Assembly (NCBI GenBank): GCA_031264185.1
Contig: JAISEL010000035.1
Location: forward strand, 1-64,000
DNA: 64,000 nt
Source of the DNA: Deltaproteobacteria bacterium
GTDB taxonomy: Bacteria; Desulfobacterota; Desulfarculia; Adiutricales; Adiutricaceae
Reading direction: 5' to 3'
The notes under the pieces were generated by a model. The model saw only the letters and a program-made list of their open reading frames with translations. It ran no database searches and was not told where the DNA came from. Below, one piece after another: positions 29,159 through 64,000 of the stretch; the first letter of the stretch is position 1; the number at the start of each line of letters is the position of its first letter. Position numbers and translations under genes: made by a program.

Positions 29159-32100
29159 ATGGGAAAAATAAAAAAATCCTCTCATGATAATTTAGCGGAC
29201 CGGATTGCATTTTTAGTAAGTTTCGCTTTATTGGCGGTTCTGGCTGTATTTCAGGCTGGCCCTGTCTACGGCCAGGCCGACATGACTGAAGTAACCAATT
29301 CTATGGCTGATTATTTTGGAACACTGACCGGCAAAGATCTCATAATCGGCACGAAAATTAAGGAAAGCAGCTCAAGCTTTCCTACTACTCCTGAGTCCTT
29401 TTATTACAGCGCTCAGTCCAATGCTGCTTTAACTGAGACAAGCAGCTTCAATAGAATTAGGATTGGCAGCCAGTCCAAAATGTTTACCGCTGCGGTTATT
29501 CTGGCTTTAATGGATACTAGTCACGATTTTAGCCTGGAAACCACCATAAATGAGCTGTTGGAGATCCAGGCGGTCAAGGACGCTCTGCCGGCCAACGCCC
29601 AAGAGCGCATCGGTCATTATGCCGTTAAGGATCTTCTGAATATGGGGACCGATGTCCCAAATTATCTGGCCGTGCCCTCAGATCCTGACCATCCTGATGT
29701 CCCGTTTGTGTATTACTGGCTAGCTAGTCAAGCTAACGGGGCCACTGGAGGTTACGGCTCGGTTGAAGGCTACGACGACGATGCGACTGTCTATAAAAAG
29801 TTAGCCGAACTGGCGCTTATCGGTCAGCCGATTCCGCCTTTGACTCCGCCTTACAATTCCGAGTATTCCAACAGCAATGCCGTGATCCTCGCCCTCATTG
29901 CCCAGGCTTTGACCGGGGAAGATTTTGGGCATCTTCTAGATGAGTACCTGAAATCCGAAAGTATCACAAGCACCATTCTGCAGAGTTCAGTCGGGGACAC
30001 TGGCGGCAATGAACATATGGTAGGCACCGACGGGGGGCCTAGGATAGTCAATTTGGATCCCAGACTGGCCTGGACGTCCGGGGCAGTGATCACGACCATG
30101 CCGGATCTCTTGAACTCCCTGAATAAATTTGTCTCGGATTCCAGAAGAACTGAAGATCAATATACCACGCTAATGTCCATGCATGGAATGCCAACCCACT
30201 ACGGTCTGGGTCTGATGACACTGGATTTCCAGGATTTCGAAGCCGGACCGGTGCTGGCCACCGGTCACGGCGGGGCTATACCCGGCAGCACTTCTTTTTC
30301 TGCCTGGCTGAGAACCCATGATCCGAACCAAACTCTTAATACCCTTTTAGGGGTGTACCTCAACGGCTCCACCATCCTGACCTCCGGCGGCATCTTGGCG
30401 TCCCAGGGCTCGGAATCCATGTTCGTTAGCATGGTCGAACACCTTTACCGCCAGTACCGGGCAGAGGAATACGGTATAGCACCAAACGTAAACGGCAGTG
30501 ATTATACCCTTATATATAACGGCGATCCCAGCGGCTATTCCAGCGGCAACAGCGCCGCAGCTGCAATTGCCGCCAGTAATCTCTCCTTTGAGCTGACCGG
30601 GACTCTGGCTGGAAAGTCAGCGGTGCCTTCCATCGCTTACCTTGACACGGACACCGTAAGTCCGGGCTATTTCGGGCCGGGGGGGCTGATAAACGGCATA
30701 ACCTCCGTCACCTTGGATCCGGTCTACACTTTTTACGGGAAAAACGACTTTGTGGCAGCAGGTCACGTTTCGGTGGCTTTAACAGTCGCTGGCGCTCTTT
30801 CAATGCCCTCTTGGGCCAGAATTGAAAGCTATGCCAACGGACAAACGGCCGGCCGCAGATTTAACCTTCTCAGTTTGCCGGCCGGTTCTACGGGAGATAT
30901 AAACGGTCAGGTCGCCGCTTACGGCAGCAATGTCCTGGCTGTCCGGGCCGGCAGAAATTTAACGGTAGGGGAGAGCGGAGTCATTGAGGCCCACGGGAAC
31001 AAGGCCGCCGCTCTTGAGCTTTCAGCCGGAAACGGCAATATCGTCAACGGCCGGATCACAGCGGTGGGTTCTGGAGTGGTCGGTCTGGAAGTAAGCCCCG
31101 GGGCCGGGGTTACGGTCGGCTCTAAAGCCCTTATCCGGGCTGACAGTTACGCTTTGTCGGCCAAAGAAGACAATAACAAGTTTGTATATCTGGCTTCTAA
31201 CGAAGAAAATGCCGCTACAGCGGCCCGAGTTTTGTCCGGGGGCAGTCTCACTGCAGATGGCGGGACAATTATGGCCCGGGCCGATTATCCGACCCCGGAC
31301 GGTATCGTCCATGACCCGGGAGGAACTATCGATCTGAATGATCCGGCCAGCAGCCTGAAAGCCGGGGTGCTGGTTACCGGCTTAGAGTCAAACGGCGGGG
31401 CCACGGCCTTAAAAAACAGGGCCCAGATTTCAAGTTACGGCCAGGCGGTCAGTTTTGTCGGAGGGACGAATGACTTTCAGGCCGAAGATTCCCTGATTCA
31501 GGGCTCTGTCTACAGCTTTCACATCAAGTCCAGCTTGGCTTCAAATGATTCAGTGCATTTAAATTTAGAGAATTCGGTAGTATTAGGCAAAATATATTCT
31601 GAGGCCCAAGCCGGTTCAGTCTCTGTAGAGGCCGACGCCCGAACCGTAATCTTAGGGTCAAGTCTGGATCAGCCGGTCATAGAGTCGTCAGGACGGCCGA
31701 TTGACCTGCAGTTCAGTCCAGGAACCACTATCGGTTGGGACACTCCCGAAATCCCGGAAATTGGGGAGGAGGTTACAGTGATTTCCGGGGCCGCGTCCTC
31801 GTCCGTTTTAGATGGAGTCCGGGTAGCCCTTGGGCCTCAGGGCGTTTTGGATTTCACTTTAAGGACCAATGGCGGAGGTCAGCTGGCTCTCCAGGTTTCC
31901 GGTCTTTCCGGAACTTACGGACGCAATGCCCTGGAGATTTACGAGGCTTTCAGGCAGCGGACCGCAGGCCGGTCCTCGGATGTCCGGCAGCTGGCTTGGG
32001 ACGCTTTGCAGGATGCCAACAATCTGGCCCCGGAAGGGACGGTCGGTCAGTATTACGCCGGTCTGGCAATGTTTCAGCAGCTGACCTATAAGGCCAATCA

Positions 32101-33037
32101 GGCCATTAAAAATAAGCTGCAGTCCTCCTTTGGGGCTTCTGACCGGACCCCGGCCGCCGGTTCCGAATCTGGAGCGGAAGGCAATTGGCTTATAGCGGTC
32201 AGTTACGGCCATTTTGACCTGGACCGGAAAAGCGTCAGAGCCTACAGCGGCTATGAAGTTAACGGCGATGCGGTGACTTTGGGCATAGGCCGCCTTTTAA
32301 TTCCAGGTGTCAGTCTGTCGGCCTATCTGGCTTTAGGTCAGTCTGAGACGGAATTTGATCACTTAAGGTTCGACATGGACAGCGATTTATTCATGGCCGG
32401 AGCCAATCTTGGGTTCCATCACGCAATCAGTCCGGACTTGAGCTGGAACCTCTACGGCGGCCTCTCAATCGGCCGGACTGACAATGATTACCGCCGCCGG
32501 GTCGGCATTGCTTTCCCCCAAGGTTACAGCGGGTCTTTTCAGCAGGATTACTTTGGCCTTAATGCTGAATTTAATCTCATTAAAAAAATCTCACCCCAAA
32601 CTTCTTTCATCCCAAAGATCAGCGTAAGTTACATTAGAGCCGAACAGGACGGCCTCAGGGAATCCGGCGGCCAAATTACCGCTTTGACTACTGATTCCTT
32701 TAAGACTGACACCATAAAGACCCTGGTCGGGGCGGCTTTAGCCCATGACTTTGAGGTTTCTGACCAGAAAATTTTGACTTTGAGCGGGGAAGTCGGCTGG
32801 GAACATACAGGCGGCGATCGCAACCCGACGGTCAGAGGTTATTTTACCAACTTTCCGGTGACGACTTTTGTCACCAGATCCTCAGAAAATCCCCAGAACG
32901 CCTTAAACCTGGGACTGTCTATGGAATTGAGCAACCGCTCAAATCTGGGAATGAGCCTGAACCTGGAGGCCGACTTCCAGGTGGCCGAAAAAGAGACCAG
33001 CCAGCAGTACGCTCTGACTTTTAAGTACGTATTTTAA
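29159..33037 (+). CDS. type Va autotransporter with N-terminal S12-family (beta-lactamase fold) serine hydrolase passenger, beta-helical stalk and C-terminal beta-barrel
   Basis: Signal peptide. SxxK (GSQSK), YxN (EYSNSN) and HGG..PG (TGHGGAIPG) motifs of class C beta-lactamase / D-aminopeptidase / ClbP-type S12 enzymes in aa 90-400. Gly/Asn-rich pertactin-like repeats 550-900. C-terminal 300 aa of alternating-hydrophobic strands ending ...YALTFKYVF (aromatic terminus). Confidence 0.8.
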   Translation: MGKIKKSSHDNLADRIAFLVSFALLAVLAVFQAGPVYGQADMTEVTNSMADYFGTLTGKDLIIGTKIKESSSSFPTTPESFYYSAQSNAALTETSSFNRIRIGSQSKMFTAAVILALMDTSHDFSLETTINELLEIQAVKDALPANAQERIGHYAVKDLLNMGTDVPNYLAVPSDPDHPDVPFVYYWLASQANGATGGYGSVEGYDDDATVYKKLAELALIGQPIPPLTPPYNSEYSNSNAVILALIAQALTGEDFGHLLDEYLKSESITSTILQSSVGDTGGNEHMVGTDGGPRIVNLDPRLAWTSGAVITTMPDLLNSLNKFVSDSRRTEDQYTTLMSMHGMPTHYGLGLMTLDFQDFEAGPVLATGHGGAIPGSTSFSAWLRTHDPNQTLNTLLGVYLNGSTILTSGGILASQGSESMFVSMVEHLYRQYRAEEYGIAPNVNGSDYTLIYNGDPSGYSSGNSAAAAIAASNLSFELTGTLAGKSAVPSIAYLDTDTVSPGYFGPGGLINGITSVTLDPVYTFYGKNDFVAAGHVSVALTVAGALSMPSWARIESYANGQTAGRRFNLLSLPAGSTGDINGQVAAYGSNVLAVRAGRNLTVGESGVIEAHGNKAAALELSAGNGNIVNGRITAVGSGVVGLEVSPGAGVTVGSKALIRADSYALSAKEDNNKFVYLASNEENAATAARVLSGGSLTADGGTIMARADYPTPDGIVHDPGGTIDLNDPASSLKAGVLVTGLESNGGATALKNRAQISSYGQAVSFVGGTNDFQAEDSLIQGSVYSFHIKSSLASNDSVHLNLENSVVLGKIYSEAQAGSVSVEADARTVILGSSLDQPVIESSGRPIDLQFSPGTTIGWDTPEIPEIGEEVTVISGAASSSVLDGVRVALGPQGVLDFTLRTNGGGQLALQVSGLSGTYGRNALEIYEAFRQRTAGRSSDVRQLAWDALQDANNLAPEGTVGQYYAGLAMFQQLTYKANQAIKNKLQSSFGASDRTPAAGSESGAEGNWLIAVSYGHFDLDRKSVRAYSGYEVNGDAVTLGIGRLLIPGVSLSAYLALGQSETEFDHLRFDMDSDLFMAGANLGFHHAISPDLSWNLYGGLSIGRTDNDYRRRVGIAFPQGYSGSFQQDYFGLNAEFNLIKKISPQTSFIPKISVSYIRAEQDGLRESGGQITALTTDSFKTDTIKTLVGAALAHDFEVSDQKILTLSGEVGWEHTGGDRNPTVRGYFTNFPVTTFVTRSSENPQNALNLGLSMELSNRSNLGMSLNLEADFQVAEKETSQQYALTFKYVF

Positions 33038-33044
33038 AAGTCTT

Positions 33045-33114
33045 CTGACTCAAGATAGATCCCTGCAGAACGATTTAGATCAAATGGGTCTGTCTTGAGT
33101 CCAGAATTTTTTTT
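33045..33114 (+). terminator. putative rho-independent terminator between the autotransporter gene and the NRPS
   Basis: About 18-bp imperfect stem (ctgactcaagatagatccc / gggtctgtcttgagtccag) followed by a T8 run. Confidence 0.45.
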
Positions 33115-33237
33115 CTGTAGTTAAATTTTAATATAGCTATCTCTTGAAATTGGGTTTATGTACTTTTCTTTAATAGTAATTGTTTTTAATTAGCTATTAT
33201 TTTATCAAATATATAAATAATGGATCAAATAAATTTA

Positions 33238-36200
33238 TGAATGAGATGTCTCTTCTGGAAGAACTTAAATCAATTGCTTTCAGCAATTTTGGGCTTAAAC
33301 CTGAAGAGATTTCTCTTGAGACCGGTATTCTGGAACTGGGTCTTGATTCACTGATGATCATTAAACTGGGCCGGGAAATTGAACGCCGCTTCGGTCTGAG
33401 CATTCCGGCCAGATGGTTTTTTGCTAACAGGCCTTCACTTAGGGAACTGGCCGTCTATCTGGCTGAACATATACCTCAGAGCAGTCCCGCGCCCGGCTCT
33501 CCGGAGAAGAATCCGGAATTGGCCTCTAAACCGGCTTATGATTCGGATTTAAAGTCTGCAGAGACCGGGATTCAGCCCTCCTCAGCCGGAAGTTCGGTTC
33601 TCGGCCCCCGGAAAGATGCAGAAGGGGCGGCTAAGTTCTCCCCGGACAGGAACAGGGCCGGCCGTCAGGCCGCCGCCAGGTTCCCTGAGCCCTGCCGTTC
33701 CCCAAAGCCCCCTCAGTCCTCTCAGGCCTATGACGGCCCTGCCGGGCCTTCCGGAGCCAGTTCCGATTCCGGCGGCGGCTTGACCGCTGACCGGCTGGCC
33801 CTGTTCAAGCTACAGATGGAGGCCATGAATGAGCTGTTCGCCGCTCAATGGCGCGGTCTGGCTGAAGCTCCAGTCAGAAGGGCCGCTGGAGATGATCAGG
33901 CCGGCTCAAGTAACGCCGGTGATCTAAGAGGCGGACACAGTTGCATAAAAAAGGAAGAGTTCCCCCAATCCCCGAAACCGGCTTCGGTGAGCCGTAATTT
34001 TAGAGGCTTCGTTCTGGAGGAAGAGCCGCTGTCGGACGAACAGCTGGCTTTTATCCGGGCCCTGACCGAACGCCATCTGAAAAGGACCCGAAAATCCCGG
34101 GAGCTTCATCAGGCCAGCCAGGCTTTGGCAGACTGGAAATCTTCTCTGCACTACCGTCAGATTTTAGGACAGCTGGCCTATCCTATTGCGGCCCACCGAA
34201 CCTACAGAGGCCGCTTTACTGATGTGGACGGCAATGATTATCTTGATGTCGCTCTGGGCATGGGGGTCAATTTTCTGGGGCACAACCCAGAGTATATAAA
34301 TCAGGCTGTCAGAGGACGTTTGGAAAGGGGCTACGGACTCGGCCCCCAGTGCGATCTGACCGGCCCGGTGGCTTCAGGGATAGCCAAACTGACCGGGCTG
34401 GAGCGGGTTTGCTTTTGCAACACCGGCTCTGAAGCGGTGATGTTTTCCTTAAGGCTGGCCCGGGCCAGGACCAAAAGACCTTTGATTGCTATATTCAACG
34501 GTTCTTACCACGGCACTTATGACGGCATTTTGGCGGAAGACGATCACGGGCGCACGGTGACCTACTCCCCGGGAACCCGACCGGGCATGGTCGAAGATGT
34601 CCTGGTCTTAAATTACGGCTCCGATGAGGCCTTGGAGGCCATTAAAGAAAATGCCGGCCGTTTGGCGGCGGTCCTGGTAGAACCGGTCCAGAGCCGCAAA
34701 CCCGCGCTTCAGCCCCAGTCCTTTTTGAGACGTTTGCGGAAACTGACTGAAGAATTCGGCATAGCCCTGATCTTCGATGAAATGATCAACGGTTTCCGGA
34801 TAGCTCCGGGCGGGGCCCAGGAATTTTTCGGCGTCAGGGCGGATATGGCTCTGTACGGCAAACTTATCGGAGGCGGTCTGCCCATCGGTGTAGTGGCCGG
34901 GGCGGCCAAATGGCTGGACGGCATTGACGGGGGACGCCGGGAGTACGGTTCCCCTTCGCCGGAGGTTATTGTTTTTGGCGGGACCTTTTGCCGGCATCCC
35001 TTAAGTCTGGCCGCTTCAAAGGCTGTCATTGAGCATCTGCTGGAGCAGGGGCCAAAGCTTCAGGGCCGGGTCGCCAAAATGGCCGACGATCTGGCCGCCA
35101 GTCTGAACCTGTGGTTTCAGGACAGCCAGGTGCCATTAAGATTATTTAATTTTGGGCCTCAGTTTATTTTTGAAGGATACGGGCCCTGGTCGGCTCTGGT
35201 TAACCCTTTGGAACTGGATCTGTTTTATCTGCTGCTTTTAGAAAAGGGAGTTTACGTCTGGGAAAGGCGGACTTGCAGCCTGTCGGCGGCGCACACCGCA
35301 GAGGAGTTGGATTTTTTTGCGGCCAAAGTCCGGGAAGCGGTCACGGAAATAAGAGACCGCGGCTTTGAGTTCGGGCCTGATCTGGCCTACGGGGCTCCGA
35401 AACTGCTAAGACCCATGAACTATATTCAAAAACGGTTCTATGCAATTTTTCAGTCCCCTAACGGTCAGGATCCCTATCATCTGACTGTGGGCTTCCGTCT
35501 GACCGGTCAGGTCCGGCCGGATCTTCTGGAAATAGCCCTGGGGCGTCTCATTGAGATTAATGAGGCCTTAAGATCAGACTTTCGGCATATCGGGTCAGAT
35601 TTAGTTTGCTATGCTAAACCTTGGGTGCCGTTTCACCTGATTCAAGAAAAAACAGACCCGAATACTCCCTTAAAATCCTTGGTTGGCCGGTTAACCGAAC
35701 CCTACAACTTGCAGCAGGCTCCTCTCTTTCGGGCCGGCTTATTCGACCGGGGCGAAGATTTCATCTTTATCCTGGATGCCTCCCACCTTATGATCGACGG
35801 CGCCGGATTAGGTCTGATGTTAGGTCAGTTAAATCAGCTGATGAACGGGGAGTCCCTGTCTCAGACTGTAAAATTGGCCGAAGTCGAAGAGGATTTGAAT
35901 CACTATTTGGGCAAGCCTGACAAAACTGCCGGAAACAAAGGGCCAAGTGAGGCTGACCTTAGCTACTGGAGCGAAAAGCTTCAGGGTTTGGAGCCTTTGG
36001 CCTGGCCTTTGGATTTTCCGGCTAAAAGCGGGTCTAAAACCGGCTGCCAGAAATGGTTCGAGGTCAGCGCCCAGCAGCTCCAGAGTTACCGGCAGACCGC
36101 CCGGAAATTCGGTTTGACTCTCAATATGCTCTTAAGCGGCCTGTATGTTCTGACCCTCCACCGCTTTACCGGCTCCTTAAGGCTTTGCGTGGCTTTAGCC

Positions 36201-51701: not shown

Positions 51702-51705
51702 GCCG

Positions 51706-52509
51706 ATGAGTCGCTTTTTAGTGTTAGCCGGCCGGCTGGCCCCGGAGCTTTTAGACCGGAATCTAGGCGGTTTGACCAGGCTGTTCGGTTATCTGGCCGA
51801 AGAGCAGACTTTGGCAATTCAAAAAAACCGGCGGCCTCAAGATGCGGCCTTAAGGCTGCTGGTCCGGGTGTTATTGGTTAAAGCCTTAGATCTTAACGGT
51901 TTGGACGGCCTTTCAATACTGCCTGATCTTATCTGGAATGACCGTGGTCAGCCGGAACTGAAAGGAAGCCCTCTGAGGTTAAGCTTCAGCCACTCCTGGC
52001 CTTACGGGGCCTGCGCTGTAGCTTTGTTTCCTGTGGGGGTGGATGTGGAAAGAATCCAGCCATTGGCGGTCGGCGGGGCCGGTTCGGTTTTCTCGGATTC
52101 TGAAGTGCGCCGCATTTCGGGATCCGATGATCCTCAGTCGGAAGCCATCCGTCTTTGGACAGTCAAAGAGTCCGGTCTTAAAGCTCTTGGGGCCGGATTT
52201 TTAGAAGATCCTAAAAGGCTGAAAACTGAACCGGTCTTTAATGAGTCAGCCGGACAAAAGGCGCCGCCAGCGGGGCGGTCGGTTTGGGGCAGTCGGACGA
52301 TCTATTTCGGGCATTTGCCGGTGGACCCAGGCTACTGGCTGTCCTGGGGCGCCTGTCCGGATTTTCAGGAGCCGCCGGTAAATTCTCAGGCCGGTCAAAG
52401 TCTTAAAGCCTCTGAACAGGTCCGGGCCTCTGCCCGTTTTTTCGGGCCGGCCTCCCTTATTTATCTGCCCCGGGTCAGTGAGTATATAATGAACAGACTC
52501 ATAGAGTGA
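51706..52509 (+). CDS. Sfp-type 4'-phosphopantetheinyl transferase
   Basis: Motifs GVDVE and WTVKESGLKALG. Starts 4 nt after the NRPS stop. Confidence 0.85.
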   Translation: MSRFLVLAGRLAPELLDRNLGGLTRLFGYLAEEQTLAIQKNRRPQDAALRLLVRVLLVKALDLNGLDGLSILPDLIWNDRGQPELKGSPLRLSFSHSWPYGACAVALFPVGVDVERIQPLAVGGAGSVFSDSEVRRISGSDDPQSEAIRLWTVKESGLKALGAGFLEDPKRLKTEPVFNESAGQKAPPAGRSVWGSRTIYFGHLPVDPGYWLSWGACPDFQEPPVNSQAGQSLKASEQVRASARFFGPASLIYLPRVSEYIMNRLIE

Positions 52510-55500: not shown

Positions 55501-58500
55501 GCCTTAGTCGGCAGCTCTCCTTCGGAATTAGCGGACCGGCTAGCCAGTATCCGGGTCCGTAAAACCAGAGGTCCAAGACCTCTCGGCCTTTTATTTACCG
55601 GTCAGGGCTCCCAATGCCCCGGTTTAGGCTGGGAGCTGTATAAAGCTTACCCGGTTTTTCAGGAAAGTCTGGATTCTGCCCGGAAGCTCTTGCTGCCCCG
55701 GGGTATTGATCCGATTAGTTTAATTAACCCTGACCTCCCTCCCGAGGCGCTGACCCCGACTCAGATTTCCCAGCCTTTGATTTGCGCGGTCAGTTTGGCT
55801 TTGTACGATCTTTGGACTTATGTGGGCCTGACTTTTGACAGTGTCCTAGGGCACAGCGTCGGCGAGTTCCCGGCTTTAGCCGCCAGCGGGATCCTGGATC
55901 GCCGGACCGCAGTGGATCTGGTCTGTCAAAGAGGCCTTTTAATGGCCCAGGCCCCGGACGGTTCCATGACAGCGGTGTTCGCTTCAGTTGCGGAGATAGA
56001 GCCGGTTTTAAAGGACTTTCCGGATGTCAGGATCGCGGCCGATAACGCAGTCTCTTCTGTAACTTTATCCGGTCCCGCTGACTCTTTAAGCCGGTTGAGC
56101 GGGTATCTGGAGAAAGAAAAGATCAGTTCAGTGCCTCTGAAGGTTTCGGCGGCTTTTCATTCTCCGGCCATGCAGGAGGCCGCTGAAAAGTTTGACGAGT
56201 ATATCTCCCTCAAGTACGGTCAGAACAGCCCCGACTCTTTTTCTGACCTGGAAAAAACGGGCCGGCGGGGAGAATTTGGCTTCCGTCAGTCCAGGGAATC
56301 TCCGGCGCCTCTCAGCCCCTGCGGACTCCTGCAGCCGAAGGGCAGCCAGTATCCGGTTTTTATCTCCAGCCTTTTGGCTCAACCGGCTTATTCGGTCGAT
56401 TCCGGCTATTTTGGCCGACAGATCGCCTCACCGGTACGTTTTCGGGAGGCCAGTTCCGTTATGGCCCAAAGAGTCAGTCTGGCCGTGGAGGCCGGTCCCT
56501 CGGGAGCCCTTTCCGGGCTGGTGGCCCAGGGCGGGCAGATATTAGGACTCAGCACTCTGAAGCCCGGCCGTTCGGCTCTGGAGAGCTTTTTGGTCGCAGC
56601 CTCGGAACTGTATCAGGAGGGGTTTGATCTTGACTGGGGCAAGGTCTGGGAACCTCTTCCCCAAGGCCGGACCAGTCTGCCTGCCTATCCCTTCCAAAGG
56701 GAGCGCTTCTGGCTGGAAGTCCGGCACTCCCCGCCGCACTTTCCGGCCCCGAAAGCCGGAATGGCCGCCGCTGAAGCTGATGAGGCCCCCCGAAAAAGGC
56801 ACCCCGTTTTAGGCCGCCTCATCAAAAGTCCGGCTCTGGGCAAAGCCTCGGTCTTTGAAACCGTCTTCAATGAAGAAGGACCTAGGTTTCTCTGGGAGCA
56901 CCGCATCCTGGGGCGGGCCGTCAGTCCGGCCGCCGGGCATGCGGCCATGGTCTTAGCGGCGGCGGAAGCTCTGCGCGGCCGGGCGGTCTGCGAATTGAAG
57001 GAGGTCAGCTTTACCCAGCCTTTAGTGATAGGTCCTCGGGAGGAACGTCTGGTTCAGGTCATTGTCGATAATCCCCAGGATGACTTAAGCGCCTTTTCTT
57101 TGGTCAGTTGCGGAAAAAATGCTTCTGAGTTTGTCACCCATGCGGCTGGTTTTATTAGTTTTGCAGTCCCAGAAAAGCCCAAAAATAATCCGGAGGCCGT
57201 AAAACAGCGGCCTCAGACCATGACCGTGGACAGTTACTGCAGCGCTTTCGCTGACTACGGGTACGGCTTAGCCCCGGACTTCTGGCGGCTGTCTTCAATT
57301 TTTGTCGACGGCCCGGAAAATTACTGCCAGGTGGAAGCCAGAAGACACACCCCCTCAGAAGCCGGTCACGTCATTTATCCGGGCTCTTTAGACAGTGTCT
57401 TTCAAACCACTATGCCGGCCGTAATTAATGAGGCCGTACCTTTTATGGTCGCCAATAACGGCCTTTTTGTCCCTCTGTTCATGGAAAGTCTGAGTTTGTG
57501 GGCCCAGGTTCCTGAAAAGCTTTTTTGTCACGGCCTGACGAAGTTCAGCGCATCCCCTCTGGGCATCACCAGTTCCGTGACGGCTTATGACCGGACCGGG
57601 GAGCCGGTCCTGGCTGTCAGATCCCTTTATCTGCCCCTGACCAGTCAAAAGGTTTTTTACAGGCGGCCGCCTTTGACCCCGGCCCCGGTTTTTGGCCGTG
57701 ATTCAGGAACCGCTGAGGACCAATCCCCGCTGCGTTTTTATCTGGAGAAATGGCAGAAGGCAGATCTGTCAGCGGCAAAAAAAGTTACTCAGCTGAGCCG
57801 TGAAACTGTCAGCTGCGATAATCTGCCTGACCTGAAAGATCGGGCGCTTGAAGTCATCAGTCTGGGCCGTTTCCTGGCTCAGGGCTCTGAGGCCGGGGTT
57901 TTAGCCGGCCGGGATAAAAGCCGCCGGAATTTCACCGGTTATTCAGCCGAAGCTTCCTCCCGGCTGACGTTATCGGCTGACTGCGATATTGTCTTACTGG
58001 CTCCTGCCGGTCAGACGGAGATCTCCGCCGAGCTGCCCTTCAGAGAGCTTGCCCTCTTCAATGAATGCCTGGCTTATGTAAAAGTCCTCTTAAAAAGCCC
58101 GTATAAGCACCGGATACATTTGGTCACCGCACGGGCCAGAGTCGTTGACTGCATAGAGCATCCGGACAGCGGCGGCCGCAATGAGCCGGTCTCTTTGCAG
58201 GGCGCCAGCCTCATCGGCTTAGGCCGGACTCTGGCTTTGGAAAGACCGGATCTCTGGGCCGGGCAGCTGGATATATCTGGGGACAGCCGGGAAGATGCTC
58301 TGGAGATTATCAGACGCTTAAATAATGAACTGTCCGGTGAGCCTTACGAACTGGCTTTTCGGGGCGGGGTTTTTTACGAGCCTTTCTTATTAAATCATCA
58401 GGCGCCCTCCGGCTTGGATCTCCCTGAAGCCCTTAAAGACCATAAAGACAATAATGTCCAGGGAATTCAGGTCATCACCGGGGCCAACGGCGCCTTAACC

Positions 58501-59769
58501 CGAAAACTGGCTGAACATTTAGTCGGCAGAGGCGCCCGGGAGCTAGCCTTAATCAGCCGGGAGGGCTTATCCGGCGAGTCTTTGCAGCTGGCTGAGGAGT
58601 TAAGGGCCAGGGGCGTTACAGTTCTGGATTTAAACGCTGATGTCACGGTTTTTGGGGAATTGAGCCAGGCTCTGGCCTCAGCCAGAGAGGCAGGTGCGAT
58701 AAAGGGGATATGGCATCTGGCCGGGACTCTGGCGGATGGGCTGATTGAGGCTATGTCCGAGGAGAGGGTCCTTAAGGTCTTAGGGCCCAAGATTTTTGGA
58801 GCCGTTAATCTCCATCTGGCAACTTTAAAAGATCCCCTGGACTATTTTACGCTTTTTTCTTCCGTAGCCGCTCTTTTGGGATCAGCCGGTCAGGCCGGCT
58901 ATGTCTCCGCCAACTTTTTTATGGAGGCCATTGCCCGTTACCGGCGGCTGCAGAAATTGCCCTCGGCCGCTCCTGAGTGGGGCCCACTGGCCGGTTCCGG
59001 CATGGCCGGCAGTGCCGTGCGCGGTGATAACCTCAGGCGTCAGGGTTTTATTCCGCTGGAGACTTTTGAGTTCTTCCGGGTTTTGGATTCAGTCTTGGGG
59101 CAAAAATCGGAGGACTCAGAGGTCCTTGGGGTGTTCGGGGCTGTGAAGATGGACCTGGAAAAATTTTTCCGGCACCCGGAACGGCGCCGGGACCGGCGCC
59201 TTAAGTCCATTATCCCCCGGCCGGCCAAGACCGGCGGACCAGGGAACGGGTCGGGAGACCGATCCCGCCGCGCCCCCGGGGACGGTGTAAACGACGGGTT
59301 AGCCTTAGCTTTAAGCCAGTTAAATCTGGCAGGGGACCGGGGGCCCGTTCTGCAGGAACTGACGGAACTGGCCGCCGATCTTTTAGGCTTCGCTCCTCAG
59401 GATATCGATCCGCAAAAACCTTTAAGCGACTACGGCTTTGACTCCCTGATGACGGTTTCCCTGCGCAACCGGCTGGGCAGCGCTTTAGGCCGCAGCGTTC
59501 CGGTATCTTTAGCCTTCGAGCACCCGACAGTTTCGGCTATGACCGACTGGCTGGCTTTAAATTTTGGCCCGGCCTCCGGTGAGGCGGCCGGCGGCCTGGG
59601 GGTTGCCGGATCCTCAGAATCCGACCGGCAGGACCAGCCGTACCTGCCGGATAAAACCGATCGGCCTGACCGGTTTGACCGGACTGCCCCCCCGCTGGCT
59701 CCACTCGGAGGGGCGATTAGTGTCGATGCCCTGATGTCGGACATAGAAAAGCTTTTGGATAATCAATGA
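52552..59769 (+). CDS. type I polyketide synthase: loading AT-ACP + module KS-AT-DH-KR-ACP
   Basis: AT1 GHSGGE (about 52850). ACP LGLDSL (about 53760). KS DTACSSSLVAL / EAHGTGT / NIGHLE. AT2 GHSVGE with AAFHS (malonyl-type). DH HRILGRAVSPAAGH. KR GANGALTRKLA. ACP GFDSLMTV. Alternative start ATG 52573. Confidence 0.95.
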   Translation: MIFLGRSMKDLIYVFSGLGSQWAGMGADLIDSDQVFTEAFREFDSSFRACSGWSVEEKLFRSDEPVALSYAQFWHPAIVAVQYALYKACENRLPKPQAVLGHSGGEAAAALIAGALSLKEAACLTCGHIKLMEKTSPGALMHLPISFSAAKELTEGTSITVAAVNSPSSVVLAGDSGVLNDFLLTENLTGTARLVPFDRSFHSPALEPFGADFEKNLQIKPQKANFTFISSFLARIVPGEALTPAYWRRHAAEPVRFDKAVELSLYLGAKGFVDFSPHPIFLQALHETASLQGRNIFYVNLMQRHQKSLPVIASALTRLKEAGSKTFSSSGPQASEDRDGPENLLPPGASDPTLQADLELPGLNIHQRAAALEKFLVSKLHELTEIPDDRTGETALCPFMSLGLDSLNLVSLINDLALKTGLTLAPSLVFSYPEARSLARYSAEAMELPKSDSGETGCFLKSSAAQSSSDRRPEVKAGLTGREPLAVVGLAFRFPGGAVDGESFWRILKEGRDAIGIIPKSRWNAEDFYHPDREHPGTMYTRSGGFIEDTFQGFDANFFGLAGREAKQLDPQQRLLLELSWEAFEDGSIDPLKWKNKRAGVFLGMTNSEYSRAHRDSFDRDLIDAYSLTGTTMSGACGRLSYFYGFNGPCFTVDTACSSSLVALAQAGQSLRAGESDLALVGAVSLMLIPEMHICFTKLGAISSDGRSKAFDDGADGYGRGEGAAVVLLKRLGDAEKAGDRILGTIKGHYLNQDGRSNGLTAPSGLAQQELIKGSLADAGLLPSEIDYVEAHGTGTSLGDLVELEALSAAYGPGRLKPLLIGSVKANIGHLEPVSGLASLIKVLLAMKHGQIPANIHLKSPNRRFDWAKGRIAAPTSLVSWPDNESGALKRAGLSAFGFSGVNGHLIVEEYRRTESAASLKGQSADSVASEPPILLLLSAKSQKALEELAFKVAQRLRNCDRRAALNLAYSLANHRPHFEFRAALVGSSPSELADRLASIRVRKTRGPRPLGLLFTGQGSQCPGLGWELYKAYPVFQESLDSARKLLLPRGIDPISLINPDLPPEALTPTQISQPLICAVSLALYDLWTYVGLTFDSVLGHSVGEFPALAASGILDRRTAVDLVCQRGLLMAQAPDGSMTAVFASVAEIEPVLKDFPDVRIAADNAVSSVTLSGPADSLSRLSGYLEKEKISSVPLKVSAAFHSPAMQEAAEKFDEYISLKYGQNSPDSFSDLEKTGRRGEFGFRQSRESPAPLSPCGLLQPKGSQYPVFISSLLAQPAYSVDSGYFGRQIASPVRFREASSVMAQRVSLAVEAGPSGALSGLVAQGGQILGLSTLKPGRSALESFLVAASELYQEGFDLDWGKVWEPLPQGRTSLPAYPFQRERFWLEVRHSPPHFPAPKAGMAAAEADEAPRKRHPVLGRLIKSPALGKASVFETVFNEEGPRFLWEHRILGRAVSPAAGHAAMVLAAAEALRGRAVCELKEVSFTQPLVIGPREERLVQVIVDNPQDDLSAFSLVSCGKNASEFVTHAAGFISFAVPEKPKNNPEAVKQRPQTMTVDSYCSAFADYGYGLAPDFWRLSSIFVDGPENYCQVEARRHTPSEAGHVIYPGSLDSVFQTTMPAVINEAVPFMVANNGLFVPLFMESLSLWAQVPEKLFCHGLTKFSASPLGITSSVTAYDRTGEPVLAVRSLYLPLTSQKVFYRRPPLTPAPVFGRDSGTAEDQSPLRFYLEKWQKADLSAAKKVTQLSRETVSCDNLPDLKDRALEVISLGRFLAQGSEAGVLAGRDKSRRNFTGYSAEASSRLTLSADCDIVLLAPAGQTEISAELPFRELALFNECLAYVKVLLKSPYKHRIHLVTARARVVDCIEHPDSGGRNEPVSLQGASLIGLGRTLALERPDLWAGQLDISGDSREDALEIIRRLNNELSGEPYELAFRGGVFYEPFLLNHQAPSGLDLPEALKDHKDNNVQGIQVITGANGALTRKLAEHLVGRGARELALISREGLSGESLQLAEELRARGVTVLDLNADVTVFGELSQALASAREAGAIKGIWHLAGTLADGLIEAMSEERVLKVLGPKIFGAVNLHLATLKDPLDYFTLFSSVAALLGSAGQAGYVSANFFMEAIARYRRLQKLPSAAPEWGPLAGSGMAGSAVRGDNLRRQGFIPLETFEFFRVLDSVLGQKSEDSEVLGVFGAVKMDLEKFFRHPERRRDRRLKSIIPRPAKTGGPGNGSGDRSRRAPGDGVNDGLALALSQLNLAGDRGPVLQELTELAADLLGFAPQDIDPQKPLSDYGFDSLMTVSLRNRLGSALGRSVPVSLAFEHPTVSAMTDWLALNFGPASGEAAGGLGVAGSSESDRQDQPYLPDKTDRPDRFDRTAPPLAPLGGAISVDALMSDIEKLLDNQ

Positions 59770-62700
59770 CCAGTCAGCCTCCGTCTAGAGAACAGCAGTT
59801 AGAACTGGCTCTGGGTCAGGCCAGAGAGGTAATCCGCGCCCTGACTTTGGAGCGGACAAAAGAGGCTGAAGTTTTCCGCTCCGCTTTTGAGCCGGTGGCG
59901 GTCATCGGGCTGGATTTGCTTTTCCCGGCCGGAGACCGGGACGCTCAGGGGCTGGCCGAGTTCCACTCTTCTTTAATAGAGGGGGTTGTAAGTGTCAGAG
60001 ATATTCCCGAGGCCCGGCGAAAACTGTGGCAGTCTGTAAGCCCGGAAAATTCCTTTCAGCTGGCCAGGGCTTCTATTCTGAAGCGGGAGCCATTTAAAGC
60101 CGATCTGGGGCGCTTTAATCTGACCCCGGCGGAGGCCCGCCTGATGGATCCCCAGACTTTTCTGGCTTTGGAGACCGTAACCCGGGCCCTGGATAACGCC
60201 GGGCTGGACCCGGAAACGCTGGCCGGAACCAATACCGCCGTTTACTTCGGCAAAAGCGGCTTTGACTTTTTTGTGGACTATTTAGGCCGCCCTGAAAACC
60301 GGTTTGCCGATGACCCTTACAGTTTAACCGGTAACATGGCCAGCACCCTGCCGGGGCGGATCTCGTATCACTTTGACTTTTTAGGGCCCTCGGTCTTTGT
60401 GGAAACGGCCTGCTCGACCGGTTTGGTGGCCGTGGCTCAGGCCGTAAGAGCCTTGCATTCCGGGGCGGCCGATCTGGCGGTGGCCGGCGCGGTCAACCTT
60501 ATTTTGGGGCCGACTCCCTCCGGCTGGCTGGCGGCCATGAAGGCCCTGGCTCCGGACGGACTTTGCCGGGCCTTCGGAGCTGACGCCAGCGGTTTCGGGC
60601 GGGGCGAGGGGTCTGCGGCAGTGATTCTGACTCCTTTAAGCCGGGCTTTAGCCAAAGGGGACCGGATTCTGGCTGTCATAGAAGGAATAGGGGAGGGCTG
60701 TGACGGCCGGAGTTCCGGTTTTACGGTGACCTCGTCTCTGGCTCAGAAGATGGTCTTGAGGAAAGCCCTGAAGGAGGCCGGGCTGGAGCCTTCGGAGGTA
60801 GGTTATGTGGAAACCCACGGGACAGGCACGCCCTTAGGGGACCCTATTGAGGTGGAAAGTTTAAAGGAGGTTTACGGGGTGAAAAGGCCTTACCCTCTTT
60901 TGATCGGTTCAGTTAAATCCAATTTTGGGCATTTGGAAGCCGTAGCTGGCCTGGCCTCTTTAATAAAAGCGATCGGTCTGTTAAGAGAGAACCAGATTCC
61001 GCCCAGTCTCCACTGTGAGGAACTGAATCCCCTGATCGATTTTGGAGGGCAAGTGGAAGTCAATCGGGGCCTCAGAGCGTGGCCTGACGGATACGCCAGA
61101 AAAATAGCCGGGGTCAGTTCCTTTTCCCTGACCGGGGCTTTGGTGCATTTGCTGGTCTCGGAACCGCCCTCAGCAAGGTCCAAGTACCGTCTTGATCTGT
61201 CAGTGACTGAGACTGAGGCGGCAGGACCAAATGTCCGTTCAGCCAATCTTTATTTGTCCGCTCCGACCCCCGGGGCTTTAAGGGCGGAAGTCCGTCTTTA
61301 CCGGGAAAAATTATTAGCCGGGGCCGATTTTACTGAACTGGCCAGAGGATCATCCCGCCGGCCGGCCGGCCGGGAGCGTCTGGTTCTGACTTCTGATTCC
61401 GGCCGGGCGGCCTCGGATTTGGCCTCTTTTTTAAGGACAGAAAATAATAGCCGGTTGTCTGCCGGACGGGCTGAAAAACTGAGCCTGCTGTGGGTCTTTG
61501 GCGGACAGGAGCCGCTTGCCCCCGGCCTGAGCCGGGAACTGTCTGACTGCTTTCCGGTCTTTAAGGAAAGGCTGCTGGCCTTGGAACAGCGGGCTTTTCC
61601 GGTACTGGGCTTGAAAATCACTGAGATCATGTTCCAAAATTACTTAACCGGCTCCAAAGACTTTAACCGCAGCCAAGCCTTTAAGCCGGCCGTCCTGAGT
61701 GAGGTCTGCCTGTTCGCCTTTCAGGCGGCCACGGCGGCTTTGCTTTCGTCGCAGGGCCTGAAACCTGAGGCGGTTATGGGACACGGCCAGGGCGAGTATG
61801 CGGCTTTATCAGCCAGCGGACTGTACGGCTGGGAGACGGGTCTGGATCTGGTTATGACCAGGGCAAAGATGGCCTCGGAGCTGGAATCGGAGGCCCTGAA
61901 AGGCCCTAAAGTCGCCTGGGCCACTGTTTTGGCCTCCGCAGCGGAAGTAAATTTTGACCGGCCCCCTCAGGCCTATGTCATTGCGGAAAACGGACCGGCC
62001 AGCGTTACGGTAGCCGCTCCGGCGGAAGTTTTAAAGATCTGGCTGCAACGGTTAGCCGGCCGGGGCTTGGCGGTCCAGGGGCCGGCCTCCCAGCCCTTAC
62101 AGTCCTCCAGACTCTACCATTCGCCTTTTTGTGAGCCACTGTTAGGAGAATTCAGCCGGTATCTGAGACAAATCAAGTTCAATCGCTTAAAAATCCCGTA
62201 TCTGTCCGCTTCTGCGGCCTCTTATCTGGACCAGACCTACGAAAATTGGGCCGATTATCTGGCTGCCCAGACCTGTGGGCCGGTTCTTTTTCATCAGGCG
62301 CTCTTAAAAGTCCGCCAGAAAACAGGGCTGGAGATCGGCCCGGCTCAAAGTCAGATCCCGGAAGGTCTTCCGGATTTTATCCGGCTGACTCCGGTCAGCC
62401 CCGGCCGGGAGTTAGAGCAGTACCTTTTGGCTATGGGGCAGCTGTGGAGCCGAGGCGGGACAGCCAAATCCAACCCCCCCGGCCCCGTAAGGCCGGAAAT
62501 CCTCCCCCCAATTCTTTTTGAAGTTCAGGATCTGTCCAGTCCCTTTGCCGCAGAGATGACTGGGGCTGCCGGGGCGGCGGGATCATCAGGTTCAAATGCT
62601 GCAAATGATCATGAGCTTTTTGGAGGCGGCCTGAAGGCTGATCCTCTTCCGGCGGCAGCTTCCGGGGAGTCCTCAGAGAGTTTGGTCACCGAAGTTCCGC

Positions 62701-62894
62701 TGACCGGTGTTCTGCCTGAGGCTGCCGGCTCTGAGGCGGCCCTGGAACTGGCGGAGTTGCAGCTGTTCCATTTTAATCGTGTCTGCCGGCTTCAGATGAA
62801 GGCGGTTAATGAGGCCTGCGGAGACGGTAACGGCGATAATGACTGCGAGGCTGAGGAATCGGTCAGATCAAGCGGTTTTAACAGTCCGGGCTGA
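59766..62894 (+). CDS. stand-alone KS-AT didomain PKS protein without ACP; AT active-site Ser replaced by Gly (GHGQGE)
   Basis: KS ETACSTGLVAV / ETHGTGTPLGD / NFGHLEA (catalytic Cys and His present). AT region aligns, but GHSxG reads G-H-G-Q-G (Gly codon 61785-61787). The C-terminal about 200 aa are acidic/Ala-rich with no DSL carrier motif. ATGA overlap with the upstream PKS. Confidence 0.9.
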   Translation: MTSQPPSREQQLELALGQAREVIRALTLERTKEAEVFRSAFEPVAVIGLDLLFPAGDRDAQGLAEFHSSLIEGVVSVRDIPEARRKLWQSVSPENSFQLARASILKREPFKADLGRFNLTPAEARLMDPQTFLALETVTRALDNAGLDPETLAGTNTAVYFGKSGFDFFVDYLGRPENRFADDPYSLTGNMASTLPGRISYHFDFLGPSVFVETACSTGLVAVAQAVRALHSGAADLAVAGAVNLILGPTPSGWLAAMKALAPDGLCRAFGADASGFGRGEGSAAVILTPLSRALAKGDRILAVIEGIGEGCDGRSSGFTVTSSLAQKMVLRKALKEAGLEPSEVGYVETHGTGTPLGDPIEVESLKEVYGVKRPYPLLIGSVKSNFGHLEAVAGLASLIKAIGLLRENQIPPSLHCEELNPLIDFGGQVEVNRGLRAWPDGYARKIAGVSSFSLTGALVHLLVSEPPSARSKYRLDLSVTETEAAGPNVRSANLYLSAPTPGALRAEVRLYREKLLAGADFTELARGSSRRPAGRERLVLTSDSGRAASDLASFLRTENNSRLSAGRAEKLSLLWVFGGQEPLAPGLSRELSDCFPVFKERLLALEQRAFPVLGLKITEIMFQNYLTGSKDFNRSQAFKPAVLSEVCLFAFQAATAALLSSQGLKPEAVMGHGQGEYAALSASGLYGWETGLDLVMTRAKMASELESEALKGPKVAWATVLASAAEVNFDRPPQAYVIAENGPASVTVAAPAEVLKIWLQRLAGRGLAVQGPASQPLQSSRLYHSPFCEPLLGEFSRYLRQIKFNRLKIPYLSASAASYLDQTYENWADYLAAQTCGPVLFHQALLKVRQKTGLEIGPAQSQIPEGLPDFIRLTPVSPGRELEQYLLAMGQLWSRGGTAKSNPPGPVRPEILPPILFEVQDLSSPFAAEMTGAAGAAGSSGSNAANDHELFGGGLKADPLPAAASGESSESLVTEVPLTGVLPEAAGSEAALELAELQLFHFNRVCRLQMKAVNEACGDGNGDNDCEAEESVRSSGFNSPG

Positions 62895-62939: not shown

Positions 62940-64000
62940 ATGCTTATGACTCAAATACGTTTCCTTCTGTATCTCATAAAAAGGGCCGGCTCCAAACGTG
63001 ACACCCTTATTGTCACCTCTTTGCTGTCCGGCATAATTCAGGGTCTGCTGCTCTACTCCATTAACTTGTCCGTTGGGGAGCTGTCTGCGTCCCAAAGCAT
63101 TTCCTTAAGAACTTTTCTGATTTTCGTTCTGTCCATCTGCTGCCTGTACAAATGCCTTTCCGTGGCCATGGCCATCAGCGCCGGCATCGGCCGGGATTTG
63201 GTCACCAATTTGGAGCTGAAGATAACCGAAAACCTCAGCCAAATAAGCTACCGGGGCTTTTTCGGCTTAAATCAGCCTAAACTGTTTGAGGCCATCTCTG
63301 GAACCAAGGACATCATCAACGAGGCCTCAATACTGCTGCCGGTTTTTATCAGCAGTATCACCATGCTTCTTTGTTCGGTATTGTTTTCCTTCTATGTGTC
63401 CGTGGTGGGTCTGGTTTCTCTTTCGGTGGTGATGGGGATTGCGGCTTTAATATTTTTCCGCAGTGATCAAAAATTTGTGGCCGCCTTATTTAAGTACCGT
63501 CTTAATGTGGATAAATTCCAGGGTTCTTTGAAATCCGTGGTTTTAGGCTTTACAGAACTGAAAATGAATGACCGAAAGCGTTTGGAACTTTTTTCCCGGG
63601 AGATTACCCCTCTTAGGGACAAAGTTTTAATCGGCCGGCAGAAAACCGACGGCTTCCGTGTCCAAAATACGGTCATGTACGGGCTCATGGTTTACTTTCC
63701 TGTGGCGGCTCTGCTGTTTATCCTGCCCCAGACCGGGCTGGCCACATTCGAAGAGTGCATTAAGATTGTGGCTATCACCATGTTCAGCACCATACCTCTG
63801 ATCGGTCTGCTGTCCTTTATGCCTATGTCGGCCCGGGCCGCTATGATTGTCTGGTCTCTGGCTGATTTTGAAATTGAACTCAATCAGCTAAGGGACGAGA
63901 CCGGCGGCCAGCAGCAGAAGCCCTCTGATTTTGCCACCATCGCCTTAAAAGACGGGTGTTTTTCTTATAAAAATAACATAAACGGCTCTCACAGCGGGAA
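62940..64000 (+). CDS. ABC transporter, cyclic-peptide exporter type (SyrD/YojI/PvdE-like), N-terminal TM domain; 3' partial (runs off window)
   Basis: Open frame from ATG 62940/62946 to the window end. Six hydrophobic helices in the arrangement and spacing of YojI-type exporters (...LKMNDRKRLELF... compare LTLNRERAEY). Confidence 0.6.
   Translation, partial: MLMTQIRFLLYLIKRAGSKRDTLIVTSLLSGIIQGLLLYSINLSVGELSASQSISLRTFLIFVLSICCLYKCLSVAMAISAGIGRDLVTNLELKITENLSQISYRGFFGLNQPKLFEAISGTKDIINEASILLPVFISSITMLLCSVLFSFYVSVVGLVSLSVVMGIAALIFFRSDQKFVAALFKYRLNVDKFQGSLKSVVLGFTELKMNDRKRLELFSREITPLRDKVLIGRQKTDGFRVQNTVMYGLMVYFPVAALLFILPQTGLATFEECIKIVAITMFSTIPLIGLLSFMPMSARAAMIVWSLADFEIELNQLRDETGGQQQKPSDFATIALKDGCFSYKNNINGSHSG

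Follow-up and report, generated by a model that had tools for sequence, protein, structure and literature searches.

Some nonribosomal peptides begin with a beta-amino acid whose amine is installed on a polyketide intermediate by an aminotransferase (AMT). MycA, of the mycosubtilin pathway, starts from a fatty-acyl ligase and carries this ligase, an acyl carrier protein (ACP), a ketosynthase (KS), a second ACP, the AMT and the first nonribosomal peptide synthetase (NRPS) module on one protein; malonyl is loaded in trans by FenF, seven amino acids are joined, and the beta-amine closes the ring. McyE, of the microcystin pathway, is also a single protein, with an active acyltransferase (AT), and Adda needs more polyketide synthase (PKS) modules, methyltransferases and a starter chosen by an adenylation (A) domain. 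Microcystin and nodularin are released by a thioesterase (TE) with a catalytic Ser and take their D-residues from normally placed epimerization (E) domains or from racemases; nodularin is a ring of one beta-amino acid and four residues, including D-residues. The role of the AMT in converting a beta-keto to a beta-amino group has been described for the MycA/ItuA type (PMC3870968, PMC4219810), and PuwE (puwainaphycin) and ChtnA (chitinimine) are further hybrid PKS-AMT-NRPS proteins (PMC4219810, PMC13291983). Here we analyse positions 1 to 64,000 of contig JAISEL010000035.1 from a Deltaproteobacteria bacterium (assembly GCA_031264185.1), a stretch that we call the window. It holds most of a hybrid PKS-NRPS gene cluster of ~45-50 kb whose logic appears closest to that of McyD/McyE (microcystin/nodularin) and MycA (mycosubtilin).

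A conserved PKS-NRPS cluster and its predicted product

Six large open reading frames (ORFs), all on the plus strand, fill positions 29159-64000, as the original prediction had it. Its assignments of an autotransporter-borne S12 hydrolase, an Sfp-type phosphopantetheinyl transferase (PPTase), a PKS with two AT domains, a carrier-less KS-AT and a YojI-type exporter held up, as did every NRPS domain except the last, which had been called a condensation (C) domain and is instead of the E type. The mechanical NRPS ORF begins with TTG at 33180; we follow the public gene call (Logan), which starts at ATG 33237. The features of the cluster are as follows.

29159..33037, plus strand: g1, secreted S12 serine hydrolase (D-peptidase-like) with a type Va autotransporter barrel (PF00144, PF03797)
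33047..33114, plus strand: terminator-like hairpin with U-run after g1 (RNA fold -30 kcal/mol, z = -4.1, 0/200 shuffles equally stable)
33237..51701, plus strand: NRPS, 6154 amino acids (aa) from ATG, ACP-AMT-C1-A1-T1-C2-A2-T2-C3-A3-T3-C4-A4-T4-TE-E, where T is a carrier domain (Pfam on slices, motifs, Logan gene call)
33264..33458, plus strand: NRPS N-terminal ACP, LGLDSL (PF00550, residues 29-93)
34185..35123, plus strand: AMT, class III aminotransferase with pyridoxal-phosphate (PLP) lysine motif GKLIGGG (PF00202, residues 336-648; NCBIfam hemL/GSA-aminomutase-like)
35412..36671, plus strand: C1, LCL-like, SHLMIDG (Pfam; best solved relatives TycC 2jgp and LgrA)
38772..40154, plus strand: C2, DCL-like, HHLMSDA (Pfam, solved relatives)
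42627..43976, plus strand: C3, DCL-like, HHVILDG, preceded by a ~230-aa low-complexity linker (Pfam, solved relatives)
46086..47459, plus strand: C4, DCL-like, HHLILDG (Pfam, solved relatives)
49569..50249, plus strand: TE with Cys nucleophile in GLCLAG, Asn at +27 and His in PGHH (PF00975)
50313..51698, plus strand: C-terminal epimerization-type domain, HHLVVDN and LEGHGR (motifs, solved relatives, TIGR01720)
51706..52509, plus strand: Sfp-type PPTase (PF01648; weak AusB/HetI matches)
52552..59769, plus strand: PKS, 2405 aa, AT_L-ACP_L-KS1-AT1-DH-KR-ACP1, with dehydratase (DH) and ketoreductase (KR) (Pfam, motifs)
59766..62894, plus strand: KS2-AT0, 1042 aa, no carrier domain (Pfam; ETACST, ETHGTGT and SNFGHLE intact)
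62946..64000, plus strand: 5' part of a cyclic-peptide/YojI-type ABC exporter gene that runs off the window (full gene in locus record L001)

The cluster is one of a conserved and apparently uncharacterised family, with members in Candidatus Accumulibacter, in metagenome-assembled genomes (MAGs) of Betaproteobacteria and Deltaproteobacteria, in Ca. Adiutrix and in Desulfoplanes formicivorans, that is, in Desulfobacterota and Betaproteobacteria. About 30 stand-alone KS-AT proteins are related to that of the window at 36-46% identity. Family contigs share a PKS of identical architecture, the KS-AT, the ABC exporter, a type II thioesterase (TEII), a Cys-rich protein, an RND pump and the ACP-AMT NRPS with its PPTase, whose gene follows that of the NRPS in all family loci. 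The PKS core is common to at least six divergent loci, and the order DUF697, S12/autotransporter, NRPS recurs in four (the window, L007, L013/L014 and L015/L016). A literature search covering the family, Desulfoplanes, Adiutrix, the accessions, TE-E endings and E domains acting in trans returned no published account of it and no characterised relative.

We think it probable that the cluster encodes a hybrid line that makes a peptide of one polyketide-derived beta-amino acid and four alpha-amino acids. The route first proposed for it (loading AT-ACP, a DH-KR module giving a 2-enoyl chain, an ACP-less KS acting onto the NRPS ACP, AMT, four C-A-T modules and TE) is backed by domain anatomy and active-site motifs from the starter to the fourth residue, and from these we infer the following chemistry. 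The loading AT-ACP would prime a non-carboxylated acyl-CoA starter, and KS1-AT1(malonyl)-DH-KR-ACP1, with its motifs in place, would add one C2 unit to give a 2-enoyl thioester. KS2 would then condense this chain with malonyl on the N-terminal ACP of the NRPS, the malonyl coming in trans from AT1 or FabD. To judge from the architecture, the PLP lysine and the logic of McyD/McyE or MycA, the AMT would turn the 3-oxo into a 3-amino group and so produce a 3-amino-4-enoyl unit. C1 would join the beta-aminoacyl chain to residue 1, after which a further three modules, with DCL-like C domains, would act, and the C-terminal E domain would epimerise at least the last residue. Release by the Cys-TE would most simply come about by attack of the free beta-amine, and a macrolactam release is plausible; the product would be cyclic and of pentapeptide size, with one beta-amino and four alpha-amino acids, many of its residues probably in the D-form. 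The TEII would proofread, the ABC transporter and the RND pump would export the product, and a surface-displayed g1 might either protect the producer or trim the product outside the cell.

If expressed, such a line would yield a small, probably D-rich (cyclo)peptide with an allylic beta-amino acid from strict anaerobes, including relatives of the termite-gut symbiont Ca. Adiutrix; we know of almost no natural products from this strictly anaerobic group. Desulfoplanes formicivorans offers a cultured entry point to the family.

The cluster shares its core with all the systems introduced above. As in MycA/ItuA of Bacillus, a KS without reductive domains is followed by a carrier, a class III AMT and C-A-T, and the trans-loading of malonyl done there by FenF is what must also happen here. 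This line differs from MycA in its AT-ACP loading, its extra DH-KR module, its separate KS-AT, its T-TE(Cys)-E end and its four amino acids. In McyD-McyE and NdaD-NdaF, which build Adda, a DH-KR step to a 2-enoyl chain precedes KS-AT-ACP-AMT, giving a 3-amino-4-enoic acid that passes to the NRPS, and the same logic applies here; unlike in McyE, the KS-AT is split off, its AT is dead, the TE has a Cys and an E domain follows it. PuwE and ChtnA also combine a non-reducing PKS module, an AMT and an NRPS module for a beta-amino acyl start, but they begin from a long fatty or polyunsaturated fatty acid (PUFA)-type chain (through a fatty-acyl-AMP ligase (FAAL) or a PUFA synthase) and keep everything from KS through C-A-T on one protein, and PuwE has an oxygenase domain besides. 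The order of carrier, GSA-aminomutase-like AMT with PLP lysine, and C-A-T is the one known from AMT lines, and the single polypeptide bearing KS, carrier and AMT is replaced by separate genes in all family loci.

The cluster is not a new class of system. The original prediction had treated the distribution of these pieces over several proteins as unique, yet the separation of KS-AT from ACP-AMT is conserved family-wide and is commonplace: since many public proteins start with ACP-AMT-C-A-T and lack a KS, the break between KS(-AT) and ACP-AMT is a common place to cut the module. Stand-alone ACP-AMT proteins also exist in public databases. Nor is it meaningful that the NRPS is encoded before the PKS, as had been suggested, because in D. 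formicivorans and L013/L014 the two genes lie on opposite strands and the PKS gene faces the NRPS gene; gene order need not follow biosynthetic order. Interest attaches instead to three unexpected features that the family conserves: the T-TE(Cys/Asn/His)-E ending, DCL-like C domains that lack an E partner, and an autotransporter resembling D-peptidases.

Starter selection and the two extension steps

The PKS reads AT-ACP-KS-AT-DH-KR-ACP by both Pfam and motifs. Its loading AT has the active-site motif GHSGGE and a His at the position of FabD Arg117; this Arg is missing from the loading AT of six of six family PKSs (His in five, Gln in L009). A loading AT without the carboxylate-binding Arg fits a non-carboxylated starter, as far as the motif allows. 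AT1 is of the malonyl type (xAFHS), with GHSVGE, the Arg and AAFHS. The DH motif HxxxGxxxxP and the catalytic Tyr of the KR are intact, and the LAD motif of the KR suggests the B type. Both KS1 and KS2 keep Cys-His-His.

These features bear on the word 'lipopeptide', which the original prediction had applied to the product and which we do not retain. The loading AT is of the kind that takes short, non-carboxylated starters, and therefore the beta-amino acid may be short. An iturin-like line, in which a long fatty beta-amino acid heads a cyclic lipopeptide, the terminal C domain aids release and the split is peculiar to this locus, would be in keeping with the MycA-like ACP-AMT-C-A-T start and with the label 'iturin family lipopeptide synthetase A' that JGI gives to some relatives. 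We nevertheless consider it distinctly improbable: the window and the inspected loci contain neither a FAAL nor a starter C domain (to judge by its solved relatives, C1 is of the LCL-like and not the starter kind), the AT-ACP loading unit is followed by only two C2 extensions, the terminal domain is E-type, and the split is common to the whole family and to many unrelated ACP-AMT-C-A-T proteins.

Two side observations concern the supply of building blocks in relatives. Directly upstream of the PKS gene, L002 (5-3371), L005 (1-3304) and L015 (31737-35103) carry an FkbH-like four-gene cassette of 3-hydroxyacyl-CoA dehydrogenase, ACP, acyl-CoA dehydrogenase and HAD hydrolase, none of which occurs in the visible part of the window cluster. 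We take this cassette to be a maker of hydroxymalonyl-ACP, and its presence suggests that these relatives use a hydroxymalonyl-type extender and place a 2-hydroxy-3-amino acid in their product. In L010, a PaaK-like acyl-CoA ligase gene (10560-11864) follows that of the Cys-rich protein and could supply a starter.

The second extension would rest with the stand-alone KS-AT. It has no reductive domains, as expected of a condensing module that delivers a 3-oxoacyl chain, and the C-terminal tail of the PKS and the N-terminal helix of the KS-AT are consistent with docking. Its own AT is degenerate at three sites (GHGQGE for GHSxGE, GQEPL for GQGSQ and RLYHS for HAFHS). Because this AT is dead, malonyl for the KS2 step would have to arrive in trans. 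All three KS or loading units carry cis AT folds, which is not the make-up of a trans-AT PKS, and no discrete AT was found among the genes inspected in the window or L001.

A sequencing error can be set aside as the source of the Ser-to-Gly change, as two further AT motifs are degenerate and three orthologs share the loss. Among 31 aligned KS-AT relatives, 27 have GHS[I/V]GEYA with an xAFH-type motif, mostly HAFH; in the other four, namely the window protein, P0005, P0018 and P0019, the catalytic Ser is absent and all three sites are degenerate. The last three are 39-46% identical to the window protein, and the two contigs examined, those of P0005 and P0019, keep full synteny. In this alignment, the dead AT is a trait of a four-member subclade and not of the family. 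Since orthologs this divergent share the loss with synteny kept, we read the dead AT as a stable, functional state that would rely on trans-loading, and not as decay.

The opposite view, that the cluster of the window MAG is decaying and makes no product, would see relaxed selection in the AT with Gly for Ser, in the variant motifs HHxxxDN and SHxxxDG and in the long low-complexity linkers. The AT has indeed lost GHS, GQGSQ and HAFH, and low-complexity inserts of 100-230 aa stand after T1 and T2 that the Ca. Adiutrix ortholog lacks. Against this, ~33 kb of coding sequence from g1 to the KS-AT runs without a stop or frameshift, every other catalytic motif is intact, and the dead AT itself is shared with the divergent, syntenic orthologs just described, which makes decay highly improbable. 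The dead-AT subclade is instead a natural 'AT knock-out' for studying the trans-loading of a split PKS/NRPS module.

Peptide assembly, stereochemistry and release

The aspartate of the FDxS motif had been reported for all four A domains, and both Asp235 and Lys517 are present in A1-A4. The specificity residues read by eye are off by one at position 331. The A-domain codes are DAWYLGTVTK for A1, DVMWSGGVTK for A2, DAFFAALVWK for A3 and DAWNTGEVLK for A4; A3 looks aromatic-like and A4 Thr-like, resemblances that are leads only. Across the family the codes are conserved position by position, which indicates one conserved peptide scaffold. The gaps T1-C2 and T2-C3, considered as sites of extra domains, consist of Ser/Pro/Gly/Ala low-complexity sequence without a Pfam match and are absent from orthologs; the ACP-AMT gap is likewise a low-complexity linker with no additional domain.

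The C domains raise a stereochemical puzzle. Among solved domains, C2-C4 come closest to TycB1, the second (C-terminal) region of the bacitracin synthase 3 chain, McyB C1, SrfA-C and PvdL. We take these references to be DCL from their position after E domains. The matches to DCL-type references have E = 1e-18 to 1e-34, whereas LCL references match more weakly by many orders of magnitude or not at all. C2-C4 are thus DCL-like in sequence, but the E domain expected upstream of each is missing, modules 1-3 being C-A-T only. Members of the DCL clade, some glycopeptide C domains among them, can function as LCL domains (Rausch et al., PMC1894796), and dual E/C domains are defined by a second N-terminal His motif, HH[I/L]xxxxGD (PMC1894796). 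Dual E/C domains were rejected as the source of D-residues, since no C domain in six family NRPSs contains this motif, and a cluster-encoded racemase was rejected as a family trait, an alanine racemase-like gene occurring in one relative only (L002). Three explanations are possible: use of L-donors by DCL-clade domains, direct activation of D-amino acids, or a single E domain serving several carriers.

An E-type domain is found in one place, at the very end of the protein. By its motifs and relatives, the last NRPS domain is of the epimerization type and not a C domain. Its best PDB relatives are the bacitracin synthase 3 chain 9rde (N-terminal part), the TycA E domain 2xhg, PvdL, the GrsA chain 5isw and 6ta8; we take the 9rde, PvdL and 5isw matches to be to E domains. 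It scores 46 bits against TIGR01720, a model that accompanies E domains, below the cutoff of 74.2 bits. 6ta8 is listed as the TycB3 E domain (PMC10510592). HHLVVDN and LEGHGR correspond to the canonical E-domain motifs (HHxxxDG, EGHGRE type), whereas the placement departs from the canonical one, after T and before the next C or TE: every family NRPS ends T4-TE-E. The five that are complete have the architecture ACP-AMT-(C-A-T)x4-TE(GLC[LM]xG)-E, two further sequences without their N-terminus have the same four modules and the same ending, and the E domain is kept in D. formicivorans and all full-length family NRPSs. When the TE-E segment was compared with 1.84 billion representative proteins, ~10 of the top 150 hits matched a contiguous C-terminal TE and E, and the other top hits matched the E part only.

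The TE before it is unusual as well. On a TE fold, the nucleophile Ser is replaced by Cys (GxCxG, with the catalytic His), and Asn takes the usual triad position of Asp, giving a Cys/Asn/His triad. Cys and Asn (+27) are shared by nine of nine family TEs, seven of which also have PGxH. The best solved relative is AB3403 (4zxh), in which a Cys (GWCFGG) aligns with the Cys here, and ObiF1 is a weak match (E = 0.043). ObiF1 (obafluorin), SulM (sulfazecin) and Acinetobacter AB3403 share with this TE an alpha/beta-hydrolase fold with Cys for Ser; they differ from it in that here the acid position is an invariant Asn, an E domain follows the TE and the substrate is pentapeptide-sized.

Such relatives leave room for another outcome, in which the Cys/Asn/His TE gives no macrolactam, releasing instead a product that is linear or contains a strained ring (such as a beta-lactone or beta-lactam formed at the last residue, in the style of ObiF1 and SulM), and the S12 autotransporter matures or inactivates a D-residue peptide outside the cell. 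The invariant Cys and Asn, the Cys aligned in AB3403 and the D-peptidase-like, secreted character of g1 are in its favour, and the A4 code, DAWNTGE[VI][LM]K across the family, agrees with the Thr code at 6/10 positions (a lead only). Moreover, Cys-TEs form beta-lactones and beta-lactams/monobactams (PMC6668435, PMC11298585). A4, on the other hand, matches no assigned specificity, an internal nucleophile is plainly at hand in the free beta-amine, as with iturins and microcystins, and there is no sulfotransferase or helper of the monobactam or obafluorin type among the inspected genes. We regard this outcome as unlikely, if the most serious competitor to release by the beta-amine.

Taken together, the T-TE(Cys/Asn/His)-E ending and three partnerless DCL-like C domains pose a testable puzzle of stereochemistry and release. 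One speculative solution is that the lone E domain after the Cys/Asn/His TE serves more than one carrier domain and supplies D-donors to all three DCL-like C domains; even action on the thioester bound to the TE is conceivable. The beta-amino acid would then carry a peptide made almost entirely of D-residues, later processed or detoxified by a surface-displayed, D-stereospecific peptidase. We think this quite unlikely; if true, an E domain that stands out of line and is shared among carriers would mean a new kind of stereochemical organisation in an NRPS.

The candidate for that peptidase is g1. It has a signal peptide, an S12/beta-lactamase-fold domain with the motifs S104xxK, Y236SN and H370GG, a passenger and a PF03797 beta-domain, as expected of a type Va autotransporter; the L007 ortholog has the same layout, and in four divergent loci the gene lies directly upstream of that of the NRPS. 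The best solved relatives of the catalytic part are alkaline D-peptidase 4y7p and S12 peptidase 3wwx. Some S12 resistance peptidases, of the TriF/BogQ kind, sit inside NRPS clusters, and g1 has the SxxK, YxN and HxG motifs on the S12 fold in common with these and with the alkaline D-peptidase of Bacillus. Unlike D-stereospecific S12 peptidases, g1 also comprises a passenger region of ~600 aa and an autotransporter barrel, and for this reason it is likely to be displayed on, or released from, the Gram-negative outer membrane. ClbP and XcnG represent a different type, an inner-membrane S12 peptidase with C-terminal transmembrane helices that acts with an NRPS starting C-A(Asn)-T-E, which builds an N-acyl-D-Asn cap. 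We rejected a ClbP-type prodrug mechanism here, since g1 ends in an autotransporter barrel rather than transmembrane helices and the NRPS starts with ACP-AMT. D-stereospecific S12 peptidases cut nonribosomal peptides at D-residues (PMC9541196). A conserved, D-peptidase-like g1 would fit a D-rich product, without proving one.

Several points count against the synthesis of a cyclic beta-amino-acyl peptide by the route set out above. The AT that would be expected to load the NRPS ACP is inactive (GHGQGE), leaving the KS2 extension dependent on an unproven trans-loading; neither the starter nor the residues taken by A1-A4 could be assigned, the A-domain codes matching none known to us; DCL-like C domains without upstream E domains misfit a simple colinear model; and Cys-TEs are known from beta-lactone and beta-lactam formation and not from plain macrolactamisation (PMC6668435, PMC11298585). 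Finally, the terminator-like hairpin that separates g1 from the NRPS gene may make their co-transcription doubtful.

Cluster limits and neighbouring genes

The tight spacing claimed for the six genes holds for the NRPS and PPTase genes (4-nt gap) and for the PKS and KS-AT genes (4-nt ATGA overlap), and fails at the other three junctions: 42 nt separate the PPTase and PKS genes, 51 nt the KS-AT and ABC exporter genes, and 199 nt, in an AT-rich gap, g1 and the NRPS ATG at 33237. This last gap contains the hairpin, which was spotted by eye and confirmed by folding, a sigma-70/terminator scan having missed it through its loop limit. Given a strong terminator-like hairpin and a 199-nt gap, g1 may be its own transcript, apart from the NRPS. 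The intergenic regions 28756-29158 and 33038-33236 are both conspicuously AT-rich.

The cluster is also larger than the stretch from 29159 to the exporter that had been proposed as its extent. Upstream of g1 we find the following.

25509..26699, plus strand: SPFH/Band_7 protein, conserved cluster neighbour (PF01145; 46% identical syntenic ortholog in Ca. Adiutrix L015)
26750..26944, plus strand: small ORF for a hydrophobic 64-aa product, between the Band_7 and binding-protein genes (60-aa gene at the equivalent place in L015/L016, by position only)
26966..28075, plus strand: periplasmic binding protein, PF04392 (ABC_sub_bind) (Pfam; 42% identical syntenic ortholog in L015; adjoins the cluster in L005)
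28213..28755, plus strand: DUF697 membrane protein directly upstream of g1 (Pfam)

A Ca. Adiutrix contig with the order Band_7, 60-aa ORF, PF04392, DUF697, g1 is syntenic with window positions 25509-33037, and the conserved unit thus starts at ~25509 and not at 29159. The four proteins compared (Band_7, PF04392, DUF697 and g1) are 35-53% identical to their syntenic counterparts there, and a Band_7 gene also flanks the cluster in the Betaproteobacteria locus L005. At the other end, the locus record L001, which reaches past the end of the window and holds the full exporter gene, shows the cluster running on for ~9 kb with genes for the TEII, the Cys-rich 170-aa protein and the RND pump. The exporter scores 247 bits against TIGR01194 (cutoff 286.2) and 251 bits against PRK10522 (cutoff 604), both below cutoff. 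The reported lack of a regulator, tailoring enzyme or MbtH gene therefore stands for the visible part only, the TEII, Cys-rich protein and RND pump genes following it and the Band_7, binding-protein and DUF697 genes preceding it.

At its two ends the whole cluster is flanked by DUF697 paralogs that are 52% identical to each other (window 28213-28755 and L001 21474-22034), and a DUF697 gene precedes g1 in three other family loci as well. The Cys-rich protein, of 170-190 aa, has an N-terminal hydrophobic segment and six invariant cysteines, and its gene follows that of the TEII in the family (L001 15810-16322, with orthologs at L008 14073-14582, L002 15320-15898 and L005 15385-15936, minus strand). 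It has no Pfam or NCBIfam match; a scan of a genome collection with one peptide pattern found 3 loci, a sample that says little about its distribution. In L010 a Type ISP restriction enzyme gene (13455-18293) marks the end of the cluster.

Rfam and tRNA scans of the window gave no matches. In 2-kb steps its G+C content ranges from 37% to 59%, the cluster part lying at 51-59%. Farther upstream, an MdoG-like gene, a 97-aa ORF and a GT2 (MdoH-like) gene at 8679-12696 have the look of an operon for osmoregulated periplasmic glucan, and near them, on the minus strand at 14756-17571, an Acyl_transf_3 protein and a glucoamylase-like protein are encoded. A predicted AAA-ATPase with a PD-(D/E)XK nuclease domain (PDDEXK_9) is encoded at 12857-14581 and an AAA_35 protein at 2180-3775 on the minus strand, gene types that are often mobile or defence-associated. 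Two tandem genes for DUF805 membrane proteins lie at 18175-18633 and 19069-19479. They are followed at 20322-21731 by the gene for an SPFH (Band_7_1) protein with five zinc-ribbon repeats at its C-terminus, and then by two ORFs, one of 235 aa without a Pfam match and one of 675 aa whose sole match, to MORN repeats, falls below threshold.

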